Assembly (NCBI GenBank): GCA_050949565.1
Contig: JBMNFY010000001.1
Coordinates: 32,001-96,000, forward strand
Direction: 5' to 3'
Length of the DNA stretch: 64,000 nucleotides
Source: Kiritimatiellia bacterium
GTDB taxonomy: Bacteria > Verrucomicrobiota > Kiritimatiellia > RFP12 > UBA1067
The notes below the pieces were generated by a model. The model did no database searches, had not been told where the DNA came from, and saw only the letters and a program-made list of their open reading frames with translations. The position numbers and the translations under genes were made by a program. Each line of letters opens with the position of its first letter. The stretch's first letter is position 1. Shown piece by piece: positions 19,720-26,021 of this stretch.

Positions 19720-19925
19720 AATAAGCAGTAAGTTGAAATAGCAAGCAGAAACCGTGAAATCATATCCGACCGTTTTTCAGAAACCGCTTTCGGGTTGACT
19801 GATCGGCCCGTGATGTAGTAGAGTCCCTGTGTAATTGAATGTGGAGGTAGCGCAAGGGCGGGGGCAGTCGTCACCTTCTGGCCCAAGAAAGAGCCGCCCA
19901 GGGTCAGCTCTAACGTTATTTGGAT

Positions 19926-20903
19926 ATGCCAACTCCTTCATACCTTTATTGCGTGATCACGGTCAGCATCCTGTGGACGCTCTGGTTCATCGCCCTCGGT
20001 TTGGAGCGCGGGTGGTTCCGCGACGTATGGCAGGGTTGGGCAACCTTGCCGCCTTCCACGAAGGCCATCATGGCCGTGTTATGCGTGTATTGCACGGTGA
20101 TCGCGCAGAAGCCGACCAACGTGAACAACTCCGCCGCGTCGCCGCACACCGGACAGCCGGCGGGCGGCGCGGTCGCTCAGCAACAACAGGCGCAGCCCGC
20201 CTCGCCCTCAACGCCGCCGCCCTTGCCCGCGACGCAGGGCGGACCGTCCGGCGTCCAGTCCGAACCCTCCCGCATCGTGCTCCAGGCCACACTCGCCGCC
20301 GACCCCGGAGTCGCGGCCGCGTTCAGCGGCGAGCCGGGCTGGAGCCTGCCCGCCGCCGTGCCCGCCACGCCCAGGCTCAACGCGCTCTCGTTCGCGGGCA
20401 ACGCGACGAACCCCGTCTCCCCCGTCTGCTTCTCCAATATCGCGGCGGTCACGGTCCAGACCCTCATGCTCGTGACGCGCGGGGACGCCGCCGACCTCGC
20501 CACGCTCGTTGACGCGCCGGAGACGGCGCGCCTGCGGCTCGTTTCCGACGGCAGCCGCCAGACGGAGCCGGGGGCGGCGGAGCTGTCGCTGACCCGGCAA
20601 TTCATCCCGCAGCAGTGGCAGGTTGTCGCCGTCGACTTCGAAAGTCCCGCCGATCTCACCGAAATGTTTTTCGGCGGCACAGCCGGACGCCCCGCCTGGA
20701 ATCGCGGCTGGCGGGGGGAGATCGCGGAGATCTTGGGGTTCAACACGCCGCCGGGCGCGGATGTCCGGGCGGGCGTGGCCAACTATCTCTCGATCCGCTG
20801 GGGTCTTGCCCCGCACCCCGCCTCGCCGGAGCAGCGCCGGGCTGCAATCGACGCGGGACTCAGCTACGGGCTTGTGTGGGGGTCGGTGCTTCTCCTAAAA
20901 TGA
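19926..20903 (+). CDS. exported protein with Pro/Ala/Gln linker and C-terminal LamG/ConA-like domain; first gene of the toxin-like locus
   Basis: Two N-terminal hydrophobic segments; WRGEIAEILGFN...VANYLSIRWGL is a LamG-type ending; terminal GSVLLLK. Confidence 0.7.
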   Translation: MPTPSYLYCVITVSILWTLWFIALGLERGWFRDVWQGWATLPPSTKAIMAVLCVYCTVIAQKPTNVNNSAASPHTGQPAGGAVAQQQQAQPASPSTPPPLPATQGGPSGVQSEPSRIVLQATLAADPGVAAAFSGEPGWSLPAAVPATPRLNALSFAGNATNPVSPVCFSNIAAVTVQTLMLVTRGDAADLATLVDAPETARLRLVSDGSRQTEPGAAELSLTRQFIPQQWQVVAVDFESPADLTEMFFGGTAGRPAWNRGWRGEIAEILGFNTPPGADVRAGVANYLSIRWGLAPHPASPEQRRAAIDAGLSYGLVWGSVLLLK

Positions 20904-20913
20904 GTGCGATGAC

Positions 20914-23025
20914 GTGAAAACCATGCTTCCAATCTGTTGCGCAGCGGCCGGTTTGCTGGCCGCGGTCTTGCCGGGGCGGGCCGCCCTTCCCCAGTGGTAT
21001 CAGGACGCGGGGCTGCCCGCGGCGGACACCGACGGCGACGGCATCCCCGACGCCTGGGAGCGGAGGACGTTCAGCGACCCGGCCGTCGCGGACTCCCACC
21101 TCGACCGGGACGGCGACGGGCTGACCGACCTGGAGGAGTTTGCCTTCGGCTCCGACCCGCGCACCTTCTCGACCATGGGCGACGGCTGGTCGGACCTCGA
21201 GAAGCGCGGCGCGGGGCTGGACGCCGCCTTCCGGGTCGTGCCGACGGTCAGCCACGCCCAGTGGCTGGCGTGGCTGGGCTGGGACGCGCAGACGTGGCAG
21301 AGGCTGACCGCCACCGACACGGAGGGGTTTGTCGTGGTCTATGGGGGATTCGTCTACAACACGCCGCCCTACTCGGAAGAGGCGGGCACCGTGGACTTCT
21401 GGCTGGAGACGCGCACCGACCGGCCCGCGTGGCTCACGGTGGGCGACGCGCTCACGACCAACAGCTTCCCGGTCCGGGCCGGGACCGGCCGCGTGCGCCT
21501 CCGGGTTGTCTACGGCGGGCCGGTCACGCTCACGCTCGACCCCCTGCCCGGAACGCTCGCGGATCTCCCCGGCGCGACCAACGGGCTGTGGCTCTGCGAA
21601 ATGTCGGTCCTCCCGGCGCACGCCAACACCGTCGTCTTCACGGTCGGCCAGACGCCGCCGCCCCCGCCCGGCAACCCGGACAGCGTGAACGGCCTCCTCC
21701 TGCTCGCGCCGCCGCCCGTCGGTCCCGTCCGCCCTCTGGATACACCGGCCCCGTCCGTCACGGCCCAGCCCCTGCGCATGACGGACGGCACAGTGTTCCT
21801 GGGCGGGAGCGGCTGGTACTGCCTGCGCGATAACTCCGCGTGCGCCTGGCCGGATTACGCGATGCTCGGTTGCGATCCGGTCAGCATGGAGATGTGCGGC
21901 GTCTCGGGCGACACCCCGCTTATCTCCAGAGAGGACGCGCTGGAGATTTTCATGGCGCGGCAACCCAGCATCCAATGCACGATAACCCAGCCCGTGGTGA
22001 ATGTGACCTACCCCTTCCTGCACGGCAGGGTCATCTTCCGGGTCAGGCTGTGCGAGGCCGTCGGCGGGGTCTTCGGCGCGGAACAAACCGACGGGCACGA
22101 GCCGAGCTACGAAAGCCCGTCCCGCTGCACCGGGATCGGATGCGGCTGCAAGGACGGGCCGCGCTGGGACATCGGCTTCAGCCACTCCGCCGTCAACACC
22201 CGCAACATCTTTCCCCGCATCGGGCCCGACAAGACCGACTCCCCACCCACCGAGCACTGCCTCGGCGTGGTCTGGAGCCCCGGCGGAAAGATCAGCCTCT
22301 TCGGCCTGCTGCACTACGGCTACCTGTACCTGCCCGACACTAACGTGCTGAGCTTCACCTCCGACAACCTGACGGTCAACGGAAAAGGCGAACTGCTGTT
22401 CGGCGACAGGCCGGAAGACTTGAAGCCCGCCATTTCGCTGGTCAAGCTGCACTACAAGCCCGATTCCGAAACAGACGTTATTTTCGACAAACTCTGGGTG
22501 GTGGTCAATGCGCCAGAAACAAAAACGGAGTTCGATGGCTGGTATGCGCGAAACGCCGACATCAGTTGGACGACGAACCTGCCGCGCCCGTTCGCCAGCA
22601 TAGCCCTCGCGACGAATGCTGCGGGAAAAGTCATCGGCCCTGTCGATCCGGAGCCTGCCGCCCCGAACCGGTGGGGAAAGCCGCATCCCATCAATTCCTA
22701 TCTCCACCATGACGCGAAGTACGAGATGCGTTCAAGGCCATCCGGCAAGCATGGGCACCAGGCGATGTATGACGACCAAGGACAACTCATTACTGCTCCG
22801 ATCGCGGCAGGGACAGCCGACCTGTACGCACCATTCGATTCACTGGGGATACCCTCGTCAGCAAAAAGCCACAGAGATCAAGATGTTTATCCGTTCATCC
22901 GCGCTTTGCAACTTGATGGCAATCCGGTGCTGTCCACGGACATCAACCGCAATCTCAACCGCCCCTGCATTTACGTGGGGCCCAACACAGACAAGTACGT
23001 CAAAAGACGCCCTGTTCTGCCATAG
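20914..23025 (+). CDS. secreted protein with DxDGDG Ca-binding repeats and variable C-terminal AMOP-like tip (putative polymorphic toxin/adhesin)
   Basis: Signal peptide; DTDGDGIPDAWE / DRDGDGLTDLEE; the tip is repeated as orphans downstream. Confidence 0.75.
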   Translation: MKTMLPICCAAAGLLAAVLPGRAALPQWYQDAGLPAADTDGDGIPDAWERRTFSDPAVADSHLDRDGDGLTDLEEFAFGSDPRTFSTMGDGWSDLEKRGAGLDAAFRVVPTVSHAQWLAWLGWDAQTWQRLTATDTEGFVVVYGGFVYNTPPYSEEAGTVDFWLETRTDRPAWLTVGDALTTNSFPVRAGTGRVRLRVVYGGPVTLTLDPLPGTLADLPGATNGLWLCEMSVLPAHANTVVFTVGQTPPPPPGNPDSVNGLLLLAPPPVGPVRPLDTPAPSVTAQPLRMTDGTVFLGGSGWYCLRDNSACAWPDYAMLGCDPVSMEMCGVSGDTPLISREDALEIFMARQPSIQCTITQPVVNVTYPFLHGRVIFRVRLCEAVGGVFGAEQTDGHEPSYESPSRCTGIGCGCKDGPRWDIGFSHSAVNTRNIFPRIGPDKTDSPPTEHCLGVVWSPGGKISLFGLLHYGYLYLPDTNVLSFTSDNLTVNGKGELLFGDRPEDLKPAISLVKLHYKPDSETDVIFDKLWVVVNAPETKTEFDGWYARNADISWTTNLPRPFASIALATNAAGKVIGPVDPEPAAPNRWGKPHPINSYLHHDAKYEMRSRPSGKHGHQAMYDDQGQLITAPIAAGTADLYAPFDSLGIPSSAKSHRDQDVYPFIRALQLDGNPVLSTDINRNLNRPCIYVGPNTDKYVKRRPVLP

Positions 23026-23037
23026 GGGAATACTGAC

Positions 23038-23781
23038 ATGAAAACGAAATTCGTTTTAATTACCGTTATGCTTTGTGCTTGCCATTGCGCCGGGCAGAGC
23101 AACGTCGTTTACTACGGGACGAACGCAAGCCCGATCAGTCTCGCGTTTGCTGACACCAATCTTTCCGAATCGGCTAAGTCGGCGATCACGGCTGATTTGC
23201 GGGTGTGTTTGAGCGAGTGGGGAAAGAAAAGCGAGTTGTATATGCGCAACAAAGGCGAATCCATTGGTTACTTATACAACTTCAAAAGCAGTCCTCATTA
23301 CCCGGAAGACATAGGTTTCCCTCGAGAAATCGTAAACGGCGCATCAGGTTTGGCTCTGCATATCCCCAAAAACCTCAGCGACGCCTACACCAACGCCTTC
23401 GCGTTCGCCGCCGCGAACTCCAACATCGTGGCTGCAGCCTATGAGTTCGTAGCGTTCGTCTCCTCAACCAATTTTTTAAGCGTCACCTCCAACCAAATAG
23501 CAAATTACTTCCTGTTCAACCAAGCCACACCGCAGTTATATCAGTTGGCGTTCCACGACCTGACAAATTCCGTTCATGGGTCATCCTACTATCCGCCGAG
23601 CGTTCTCGGCTTCCACTACAGTCCAGAAGGGCCGACGCCGACCAATCTGTGGCTCTACATCCCCTCGTCATCCCCTGTGTGCGGATATATCGAATGGGGG
23701 CCGGTCACCGCTATCTGGCATGACGGAAAGTGGAAATTCAGCATTTGGGAAAAGAATCCGCATTATGAGCTACCGCAATGA
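23038..23781 (+). CDS. signal-peptide partner/immunity-like protein, paralog 1
   Basis: Immediately follows the tip; shares DAYTNAFAFAAANSNIVAAAYEF and YYPPS.L.F.YS..GP...NLW with paralogs 2 and 3. Confidence 0.8.
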   Translation: MKTKFVLITVMLCACHCAGQSNVVYYGTNASPISLAFADTNLSESAKSAITADLRVCLSEWGKKSELYMRNKGESIGYLYNFKSSPHYPEDIGFPREIVNGASGLALHIPKNLSDAYTNAFAFAAANSNIVAAAYEFVAFVSSTNFLSVTSNQIANYFLFNQATPQLYQLAFHDLTNSVHGSSYYPPSVLGFHYSPEGPTPTNLWLYIPSSSPVCGYIEWGPVTAIWHDGKWKFSIWEKNPHYELPQ

Positions 23782-23793
23782 CTCAAGAGCACA

Positions 23794-24138
23794 TATTTGC
23801 ACCATGACGCGAAGTACGAGATGCGCTCAAACCCCACGTCCGCCGGGCATGGTCATCAGGCGATGTACGATGTGCATGGCGTGCTGATTGAAACTCCCAT
23901 CGCGGCAGGAAGTGCCGACTTTTTTGCCCCTTTTAACTCAATTGGCACGGCTCGGTTGAGTAATAAGCATTTGAAACAAGATGTCCAACCGTTTCTTAGA
24001 GCGTTGCAACTCGATGGCAATCCGGTGCTTCCCAGAGACATCAACCGCAATCTCAACCGCCCCTGCATCTACATGGGGTCAAACACAGACAAGTACATCG
24101 AAAAACGCCCCGTTTTACCCACAGGAACACAGCCATGA
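23794..24138 (+). pseudogene. orphan C-terminal tip module 1 (no signal peptide, no clear start)
   Basis: YLHHDAKYEMRS...GHQAMYD...AAGSAD...RPVLPTGTQP, homologous to the last ~108 aa of 20914-23025; its stop overlaps the next ATG. Confidence 0.85.
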
Positions 24139-24908
24139 AAATCAAAAAAACAGTTCGTCCTTTGATCCTCTCTGCCTTCGTGTTATTGCAGGTTACGCTA
24201 TGTCGCGGACAGAGTAACGTCGTTTACTACGGGGCGCACTCGAACGCGATACACGTCTCATTCGTTGACACCAGCCTCTCCATGTCAGCGCAGGCTTCCA
24301 TTACGGCTGATCTACGGATGTGCCTGAGTGAATGGGGAAAAACATCGGAGTTTGATTTGGGCCCTTATGAGCTCGGAGTGATCGGATATTTATACAATCC
24401 AGATAAAAGCCCGCACTATCCAGAGAACATCAGGTTCCCTCGAAAACTTGTTACAAACGACGTATCAGACTTGACTCTGCAGATTCCCAAGGCACTCAGC
24501 GACGCCTACACCAACGCCTTCGCGTTCGCCGCCGCCAACTCTAACATCGTGGCCGCGGCCTATGAGTTTGTGGCATTCGTCTCGTCAACCAATTTCCCTG
24601 GCATTTCGTCAAACGCTTTGCCCAATTATATCATGTTTAAGAATGCCCTTCCGGATGCAAATGCTGAATCCAACGCGATCGTCAATCTTGCCCCGCAAAT
24701 CATACCGGACCTGTGTGACCAGACGTATTATCCGCCAAGCATTCTCGGGTTCACATACAGCTCCGATGGGCCAGCGGCCACCAATTTGTGGATGCAGGTC
24801 CCCAATTCAAGCCCATCGGCAGGAGGGGGTAAGGATTGGGGCAAGACCACGGTTCTCTGGCATGAAAACAAGTGGCGGTTCTGTGTCTGGCTTGATTGGG
24901 TGCCGTGA
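24135..24908 (+). CDS. signal-peptide partner/immunity-like protein, paralog 2
   Basis: Homologous to 23038-23781; ATGA overlap with orphan tip 1. Confidence 0.8.
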   Translation: MKIKKTVRPLILSAFVLLQVTLCRGQSNVVYYGAHSNAIHVSFVDTSLSMSAQASITADLRMCLSEWGKTSEFDLGPYELGVIGYLYNPDKSPHYPENIRFPRKLVTNDVSDLTLQIPKALSDAYTNAFAFAAANSNIVAAAYEFVAFVSSTNFPGISSNALPNYIMFKNALPDANAESNAIVNLAPQIIPDLCDQTYYPPSILGFTYSSDGPAATNLWMQVPNSSPSAGGGKDWGKTTVLWHENKWRFCVWLDWVP

Positions 24909-24918
24909 TGATGAAGCC

Positions 24919-25673
24919 ATGAAAATCAAAAAAACCGTTAGTCCTTCCATCCTCTTCGTGTCCGTGTTGTTACTGGTCAATCAGTGTCACGGACAGAGCA
25001 ATGTCATTTACTATGGAGCGAACTCAAACGCACTAAGCCTTGCGTTTGCGGATACCAATCTTTCCGAATCGGCTAAATCGGCTATTACAGAGGATTTACG
25101 AGTGTGCTTGAGCGAGTGGGGGAAACAAAGCGAGTTGTATATGCGCAACAAAGGCGAATCCATTGGTTACTTGTACAACTTCAAAAGTAGCCCTCATTAC
25201 CCAGAAGATATCACATTCCCACGGGAAATCGTATCAAACGGCGTGTCAGGCTTGGCTCTGCAGATTCCCAAGGCACTTAGCGACGCTTACACCAACGCCT
25301 TCGCGTTCGCCGCCGCGAACTCAAACATCGTGGCTGCGGCTTATGAATTTGCAGCATATCTATCCTCAACAAACTTTTATACGATTACGTCCAATGAGAT
25401 TGTGAATGTCGTTCTCGTCAAAAACGCGACTCCCGACATGTATCTGCTGTCATTCGCTGACACGACAAATTCTCTGCGCAAGCAAACATATTATCCGCCC
25501 AGTCTGCTCAGCTTCAACTATAGCCCGAACGGTCCCGCTGTCTCCAATCTTTGGATGGAAATCCCCTGTTCAAACCCGGCCCCGCGGGGGGGAGCGTAAC
25601 GTGGAATGCCTTCCCATCCATCTGGCATGACAACAAATGGAAGATCGGCATCTGGGATAATTGGGGGCGGTGA
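24919..25673 (+). pseudogene. partner/immunity-like paralog 3, frameshifted at a G7 tract
   Basis: Start MKIKKTVSPS at 24919; stops at 25599. Adding one G to 25586-25592 restores SVTWNAFPSIWHDNKWKIGIWDNWGR*, matching the paralog C-termini. Confidence 0.8.
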
Positions 25674-25682
25674 GAACGCAAA

Positions 25683-26021
25683 AACTCTTTCCTCCATCAT
25701 AACGCGAAGTACGAGATGCGTTCAAGGCCATCCGGCAAGCACGGGCATCAGGCGATGTATGACGACCAAGGACAACTCATTACTGCTCCGATCGCAGCAG
25801 GGACAGCCGACCTGTACGCACCATACGATCCACGGGGGATACCCTCGTCAGCAAGAAATCACAGAGAACAAGATGTTTATCCGTTCATCCGCGCCTTGCA
25901 ACTTGACGGCAATCCGGTGCTCCCTCGAGACATCAACCGCAATCTCACCCGCCCCTGCATCTACGTGGGACCCAACACGGACAAGTACATCGAAAAACGC
26001 CCCGTTTTACCCAATTTATAG
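25683..26021 (+). pseudogene. orphan C-terminal tip module 2
   Basis: NSFLHHNAKYEMRSRPSGKHGHQAMYD...RPVLP; no downstream partner gene. Confidence 0.85.

Follow-up and report, generated by a model that had tools for sequence, protein, structure and literature searches.

The 64,000-nucleotide (nt) stretch of DNA analyzed here, called the window, comes from a Kiritimatiellia bacterium (contig JBMNFY010000001.1, positions 32,001 to 96,000 of the forward strand) and contains a gene for a protein of 703 amino acids (aa) whose C-terminal domain, the tip, is very probably homologous to the AMOP domain of isthmin-1 and other animal proteins. Because the Pfam AMOP model misses the 703-aa protein, the tip counts as a remote homologue of AMOP rather than as a member at the Pfam level. 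Downstream of this gene lie truncated copies of the tip and genes of a partner family, and the locus is read, with reasonable but not high confidence, as a polymorphic-toxin-like system in which an AMOP-fold effector would act on the envelope and exported partners would serve as immunity proteins. The gene and the two domains located in its product are as follows.

20914 to 23025, plus strand: full-length tip gene, an open reading frame (ORF) of 703 aa for a putatively exported multidomain protein ending in the AMOP-like tip
21025 to 21225, plus strand: TSP3-type calcium-binding repeats, residues 38-104 (Pfam TSP3_bac, E = 2.4e-8, and Binary_toxB calcium-binding domain, E = 4.1e-6, both above their cut-offs)
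22528 to 23022, plus strand: AMOP-fold C-terminal domain, residues 539-703, a putative effector

Relationship of the tip to the AMOP domain

The evidence for homology comes from a family profile and from a fold comparison. The profile was made from alignment A2, which holds the last 213 residues of the 703-aa protein and 42 short relatives (43 sequences). Compared with the PDB, it gave human isthmin-1 (9c6t_A) as the best match (E = 3e-4), the sole other match having an E value of 0.36, and the aligned pairs are LP..P with LPSCPC, a W, Y.MRS with YCIRS, HQA.Y with QHCCY, LI, AGT, and H...DV.PF with H...DVLPW. In this alignment, five isthmin-1 cysteines are matched by P, A, E, A, and M of the tip, which bears out the proposal, made in an earlier note on this DNA, that the disulfide cysteines of AMOP are replaced here. 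The AlphaFold model of the tip, built on A2, has a predicted local distance difference test (pLDDT) value of 93.3 and a predicted template modeling (pTM) score of 0.88. With this model, Foldseek returned only the two 9C6T chains from the PDB at E ≤ 0.001 (5e-5 and 1.3e-4; the next match had 0.15), and the identity in the structural alignment was 25%. The earlier note had tied its AMOP proposal to a significant profile or structural match, and the proposal survives on both sides: the tip model has the three-dimensional fold seen in isthmin-1, and the tip family shows a significant sequence-profile relation to bona fide AMOP sequences. By the statistics of profile and fold, the likeness exceeds chance.

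The Pfam AMOP model (PF03782; gathering score 25 bits), also named in that note as a means of recognizing the domain, gave no match to the tip or to the whole protein at E ≤ 10; weak sub-threshold matches occur in five of the 43 family members (best E = 0.001), and the window's own sequence has none. Single-sequence searches with the tip (Pfam at E ≤ 10, phmmer against the PDB, and NCBIfam) were likewise empty, so the relationship is visible by family profile or fold comparison only. A feature search of a protein atlas, to be taken as a lead only, returned clusters with AMOP in 20% of their members (score 0.91). AMOP is further marked by eight cysteines forming four disulfides and the tip has one cysteine; it thus fails two formal tests of AMOP membership, the Pfam score and the disulfide cysteines. 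This residue, in the motif RPCIY, is found in all three copies of the tip in the window, which are therefore not cysteine-free as had been claimed. Among 194 relatives covering the full domain, 183 have between zero and three cysteines (0 in 9, 1 in 79, 2 in 67, 3 in 28, 4 in 10, and 6 in 1), counted over profile match columns from the W543 column to the profile end, without insert columns, a range that can take in a few residues beyond the end of the domain.

Sequences bridging the two groups were found when the Pfam AMOP model was run over 401 genomes of the same phylum. Five genomes gave matches at E ≤ 0.01, three of them above the cut-off (41.4, 33.9, and 33.1 bits), and the hidden Markov model (HMM) of A2 matches exactly these three above-cut-off ORFs, with 76-105 bits. 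Two of the three also carry RHS_repeat in the Pfam scan; the third gives AMOP at 40.2 bits, and its start reads like what we take to be the end of an Rhs core. All three retain AMOP-type cysteines (LPECP.., LPDCPCE, QQCCY), and cysteine-bearing tips of this phylum score 30.9-41.4 bits with Pfam AMOP. Furthermore, protein P0279, from a Planctomycetaceae metagenome-assembled genome (MAG), has precomputed annotations for both RHS_repeat and AMOP and matches the A2 profile with an E value of 3.1e-8 in a database of 5.8 billion proteins. Because the A2 HMM and Pfam AMOP match the same ORFs, a continuum is apparent at the sequence level that leads from Pfam-level AMOP through cysteine-bearing tips in Rhs-repeat frames to the cysteine-poor family of the window.

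The motifs listed in the earlier note (NLPRP, RW, AKYEMRS, GHQAMYDDQGQLIT, AAGTADL, H..QDVYPFI, and KY..RRP) are all present, in the order given there, in the C-terminal part of the 703-aa protein, and the extent proposed for the tip, residues ~540-703, was accurate. The note had also counted three copies of the tip; two additional copies do exist, but only the last ~110 aa, from about residue 594 (YLHHDAKYEMRS), are triplicated, the motifs NLPRP and RW being confined to the full-length gene and absent from both extra copies. Similarly, the polar residues described as invariant in all three copies say little by themselves, as the copies are 69-85% identical, but conservation across the family is high. 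In the 194 full-domain relatives, H598, Q616, D668, Y695, and R699 are 100% conserved, and the polar residues R606, D636, H653, D657, and N670 are at least 96% conserved, together with W552, L556, P557, W587, G614, G633, A635, V658, P660, G669, P671, G689, and P700. In the HMM alignment, the tip and isthmin-1 have in common L556, P557, W587, R606, S607, Y619, the AGT turn, H653, D657, V658, and P660; opposite H598, Q616, and D636, isthmin-1 has K, H, and N. The variable positions of the tip fall between the conserved motifs, and the ten conserved polar residues most likely form a putative catalytic or ligand-binding site.

The cassette array and its partner genes

Searches for relatives of the tip gave 345 cluster representatives at E ≤ 1e-3, 211 of them at E ≤ 1e-10, and 150 of the 345 were listed. 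In 126 of 131 relatives among the matches listed, the domain ends no more than 22 residues from the C-terminus. Their N-terminal parts are diverse: most are TSP3-repeat proteins of ~700-800 aa with the same architecture as the 703-aa protein, and others carry Ig-like, fn3, InlB B-repeat, Glucodextran_B, CarboxypepD_reg, TPR, or transglutaminase domains. In polymorphic toxins, too, the effector comes last, behind N-terminal regions that differ from protein to protein. In addition, at least ~30 proteins among the matches listed are of orphan size (93-146 aa) and cover the same half of the tip that is repeated in the window.

Three relatives have unusual layouts. In P0078, a TIR domain of the CAP12/Pycsar type (residues 3-83) is joined to the last two-thirds of the tip. 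P0101, one of the five listed relatives in which the domain lies more than 22 residues from the C-terminus, has the AMOP-like domain at residues 40-291, followed by DUF6973 at 424-506. P0094 (1165 aa, with an AMOP-like C-terminus) gives a marginal Pfam NIDO match of 26.9 bits (cut-off 25) at residues 258-321, covering the first third of the model only; NIDO and AMOP co-occur in animal MUC4 and SUSD2.

In the window, the full-length gene is followed directly by the array listed here.

23038 to 23781, plus strand: partner gene 1, 247 aa, with a signal peptide by inspection; product a putative cognate immunity protein
23782 to 24138, plus strand: orphan tip 1, which lacks the N-terminal part and keeps only the final ~110 aa of the AMOP-like domain, with 69% identity to the main tip
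24135 to 24908, plus strand: partner gene 2, 257 aa, overlapping the stop codon of orphan tip 1
24919 to 25673 (end approximate), plus strand: partner gene 3, frame broken at or near the run of seven G at 25586-25592
25674 to 26021, plus strand: orphan tip 2, sharing 85% identity with the main tip

The frame of partner gene 3 shifts between '...NPAPRGGA*' and '...WNAFPSIWHDNKWKIGIW'; the partner HMM covers profile positions 1-214 only, and the conserved C-terminal part, including the Trp that is invariant in the family, sits in another frame. The change could be a sequencing error, the mark of a decayed copy, or the product of a slippage-prone tract.

The partner family was delineated from 32 related loci that were fetched from public genomes with a 12-sequence alignment, mostly MAGs of Kiritimatiellia, Lentisphaerae, and Verrucomicrobia, with a few from Acidobacteria, Bryobacterales, and Arenicella among others. 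In most loci the downstream ORF starts between -3 and +22 nt from the tip stop codon, and by inspection the N-termini of the partners are all signal-peptide-like or membrane-anchor-like. An iterative HMM seeded with the window's two copies joins 28 of 30 downstream ORFs. Of 36 unique tip sites that leave 700 nt or more of space, 31 have a member of the family as their immediate downstream neighbor, a count that is partly circular because the partner HMM was trained iteratively on the same downstream ORFs. The family (~250 aa) is highly divergent, with a mean column identity of 23% and a single invariant Trp. When 30 members were scanned against Pfam, no family was recognized and only scattered single weak matches appeared; the Foldseek search with the partner structure gave nothing at E ≤ 0.001, the atlas search gave no usable match, and only middling similarity to NTF2-like proteins was seen. 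Prediction of the tip-partner complex, run without controls, scored 0.30 against a mark of 0.32 (runs 0.30, 0.49, and 0.22), which speaks neither for nor against binding.

The genome (4.66 Mb in 21 contigs, 92% complete) contains seven tip matches, three full-length genes and four orphans, together with ten partner genes. At the locus on contig 17 (L045, 1054000-1068000) the order is an upstream 327-aa gene, a 711-aa gene, three partners, an orphan, a partner, an orphan, and two partners; the third locus consists of an 880-aa gene and one partner. Orphan tips interleaved with partner genes, two in the window and two on contig 17, are another trait of polymorphic toxins.

The two ~700-aa paralogues are 100% identical over residues 1-95, 90-98% over 96-295, 70-80% over 296-545, 54% over 546-595, and again 86-96% over 596-703. 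The window's expressed tip (22699-23022) shares 96% identity with an orphan at the contig-17 locus, whereas identity between the paralogues drops to 54% at residues 546-595, a mosaic suggestive of recent cassette exchange between the loci. Within the genome, the partner co-varies with the type of tip. For the first type (four copies, 83-96% alike), the partners that follow are 86-87% alike in all three cases having a partner; for the second type (79% alike), the partners are 62% alike. The GC content is 72-76% at 20100-21900, ~60% at 22200-22800, and ~50-52% across the end of the tip and the cassettes. Judged by the array, the mosaic, the co-variation, and this drop in GC, the tips and their partners look like exchangeable modules.

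Possible function of the tip and its partner

Rhs/YD-repeat polymorphic toxins end in a toxin tip, have an immunity gene downstream, and are accompanied by orphan cassettes of tip and immunity gene. The window resembles them in having a variable C-terminal effector candidate followed directly by a small, fast-evolving gene, in its truncated orphan tips with partner genes of their own, and in the lower GC of the tip and cassette part, and in the same phylum cysteine-bearing AMOP tips stand in Rhs-repeat frames. It differs from them in that the 703-aa protein has neither Rhs repeats nor the demarcating Rhs core motif, the recombination point falls within the effector domain (about residue 594 of 539-703), all cassettes share one fold, and the putative immunity proteins are exported. 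On the gene context and the AMOP tips in Rhs-repeat frames, a toxin-immunity function appears somewhat more probable than all other explanations taken together, and an effector role of the tip is plausible.

In the mechanism proposed here, the last 165 residues of a Sec-exported calcium-repeat protein, which form a cysteine-poor bacterial AMOP fold, would act as an effector (toxin) domain and harm competing cells; by inspection, the N-terminus of the 703-aa protein does resemble a signal peptide. The exported, fast-evolving partner of ~250 aa encoded directly downstream would most likely bind the tip and neutralize it in the envelope of the producer. The target would be periplasmic or part of the cell envelope rather than cytoplasmic, because the partners appear to be exported and because the relatives in Rhs frames retain disulfide-type cysteines, which suits an oxidizing compartment, and have lipoprotein-like or membrane ORFs behind them. 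Both truncated tips, which lack their N-terminal part and look promoterless, would represent, together with their partner genes, spare cassettes; homologous recombination at the conserved YLHHDAKYEMRS...GHGHQAMYD stretch would let them take the place of the expressed tip. Tae3-Tai3 (4HZ9), a type VI effector-immunity pair acting in the periplasm, has no sequence similarity to the present pair, and in its fold the tip bears no relation to amidases; the surroundings of the locus showed no type VI genes, although no search was aimed at them.

Several observations weigh against a toxin-immunity system. In the fold comparison the tip matches no known enzyme or toxin, and for this reason no chemistry can be assigned to it. 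The 703-aa protein gave no Rhs, PAAR, LXG, or haemagglutinin-type trafficking domain in the Pfam and NCBIfam scans, its family matches being TSP3_bac and the Binary_toxB calcium-binding domain only, so that it lacks the secretion module of polymorphic toxins. The Ig-like, fn3, InlB B-repeat, and TSP3 domains at the N-termini of the relatives are equally typical of adhesins. The orphan tips all belong to one family (69-85% identical), unlike the different toxins of classical Rhs and contact-dependent inhibition (CDI) arrays; orphan tip 2 stands without a downstream partner gene in the window, and partner gene 3 is frameshifted. Besides the circularity mentioned above, five of the 36 tip sites have no downstream partner (one in Kiritimatiellia, one in Arenicella, and three in Acidobacteria/Bryobacterales). 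The partner family is not found next to the three Pfam-level AMOP ORFs, which are followed, by inspection, by other small lipoprotein-like or membrane ORFs. On the side of homology, the Pfam AMOP model has no match anywhere in the whole genome at E ≤ 10.

Part of this evidence would also be expected if the tip were the ligand-binding or adhesive head of a surface protein, with the truncated copies as silent cassettes for antigenic or specificity variation and the partner as an assembly, anchoring, or chaperone factor. The adhesin-type N-terminal domains (CarboxypepD_reg may be added to those just named), the signal-like N-terminus without a toxin-trafficking domain, and the cassettes that are variants of one family all fit such a head, and the AMOP proteins of animals are extracellular and not known to have enzymatic activity. 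The idea is nonetheless considered unlikely: Pfam-level AMOP is found at the C-terminal end of Rhs-repeat frames, the position of the toxin in Rhs proteins, the partners exceed the tips in number (10 versus 7) and form tandem runs without tips, as is typical of immunity genes, and the near-absolute conservation of ten polar residues fits an active site better than a variable binding face.

Less probable still, the protein would be a secreted enzyme that hydrolyzes or modifies polymers as food in the digester, and the partner would be its cognate inhibitor or a folding helper, shielding the producer during export. The conserved polar set, the apparent export of the protein (by inspection), the anaerobic-digester and bioreactor metagenomes in which the stretch is mainly found, and the carbohydrate-enzyme-associated domains of some relatives (e.g., Glucodextran_B) would agree with such a role, but the orphan tip and partner cassettes, the mosaic between loci, and the steep drop in GC are atypical of catabolic enzymes, some relatives have Rhs repeats, and the tip matches no carbohydrate-active or peptidase family. 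It is a very remote prospect, and largely excluded, that the tip has an unrelated fold and resembles AMOP by convergence or chance. The failure of Pfam AMOP on the protein and the genome, with weak matches in only five of 43 relatives, could be cited for it, whereas profile and fold are independent lines of evidence, the structural alignment reaches 25% identity, and the bridging sequences both pass the Pfam AMOP cut-off and strongly match the tip family.

The comparison with animal AMOP (PF03782; isthmin-1, 9C6T) bears on what a toxin-like bacterial member would mean. The tip and the animal domain share collinear motifs (LP, W, Y..RS, Y, LI, AGT, and H...DV.P), a similar size (~165 aa), and an extracellular or exported location. 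They differ in that the animal domain has four disulfides and the tip, with its one cysteine, has none of them, and in that the tip is C-terminal, is paired with a partner gene, and occurs in exchangeable cassettes. According to the passages available from a 2025 study of the isthmin-1 structure, AMOP also occurs in MUC4, SUSD2, and ISM2, is required for the reported activities of isthmin-1, and contains four strictly conserved disulfides (C1-C8, C3-C6, C4-C9, and C5-C7) (PMC12000326). In the same passages, the only likeness named is a weak one to streptavidin, the words "catalytic" and "prokaryot" do not appear, and "enzym" appears solely in the method of the enzyme-linked immunosorbent assay (PMC12000326).

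Because the Arg of ..RS, the Tyr, the AGT turn, and the His...Asp-Val-Pro are common to the bacterial profile and isthmin-1, it may be suggested, tentatively and against the balance of probability, that animal AMOP shares ancestry with bacterial envelope-acting toxin domains and retains part of their functional pocket, as a transferred toxin tip that was later stapled by disulfides. If true, AMOP would be at root an enzymatic module, or one that binds small molecules, glycans, or lipids, rather than a generic "adhesion" domain. A large bacterial family of the same fold, with ten nearly invariant polar residues, a dedicated partner, and a toxin-like layout, offers a tractable route to what the fold binds or cleaves, and supplies a list of residues that can be tested in animal AMOP proteins. 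It would also add a new effector fold and an exported immunity-like family to the conflict systems of the little-studied Kiritimatiellia, Lentisphaerae, and Verrucomicrobia. A literature search found nothing linking AMOP with polymorphic toxins, immunity proteins, or Rhs, and, judged by titles and the starts of abstracts, the literature on "AMOP domain" and "bacterial" includes nothing on bacterial AMOP domains. A hint is already present in the databases, since Pfam flags AMOP on a few bacterial Rhs-repeat proteins; a published interpretation was not found.

Flanking genes and occurrence in metagenomes

Two further ORFs flank the gene and its array.

19920 to 20903, plus strand: upstream ORF of 327 aa with an N-terminal hydrophobic segment
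26093 to 26812: ORF of 239 aa bounding the cassette array, with a weak zinc-ribbon-like N-terminus, a long middle part rich in Lys, Asp, and Glu, and a C-terminal hydrophobic segment

Family scans of the 239-aa ORF gave sub-threshold matches only, and Pfam and NCBIfam gave none for the 327-aa ORF. A homologue of the latter adjoins the full-length gene upstream at two of the three loci, being present on contig 17 and missing at the third locus, and the ORF may be an accessory gene. The contig-17 homologue is read in two overlapping frames (L045 10191-11195 and 10205-10516, minus strand), which correspond to residues 1-271 and 258-327, and it may be frameshifted.

The metagenomes that contain the stretch are mainly of the anaerobic-digester, bioreactor, and biogas kind, with the whole or a part of it in 20 runs from 19 studies. 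Contigs from RNA libraries of three studies match, with few differences or none, portions of the main gene, its tip, and the first two partner genes; this is not proof of transcription, and the portions without coverage carry no information. In metagenome and RNA-library contigs of other runs (X15 and X1, corresponding to window positions 23052-26011), the cassettes are ordered differently from the window, for example a partner followed by a partner, the orphan tip 1 sequence joined to the main tip, and the end of orphan tip 2 followed by the start of a partner. Paralogous loci or other strains may be the source of these alternative orders.

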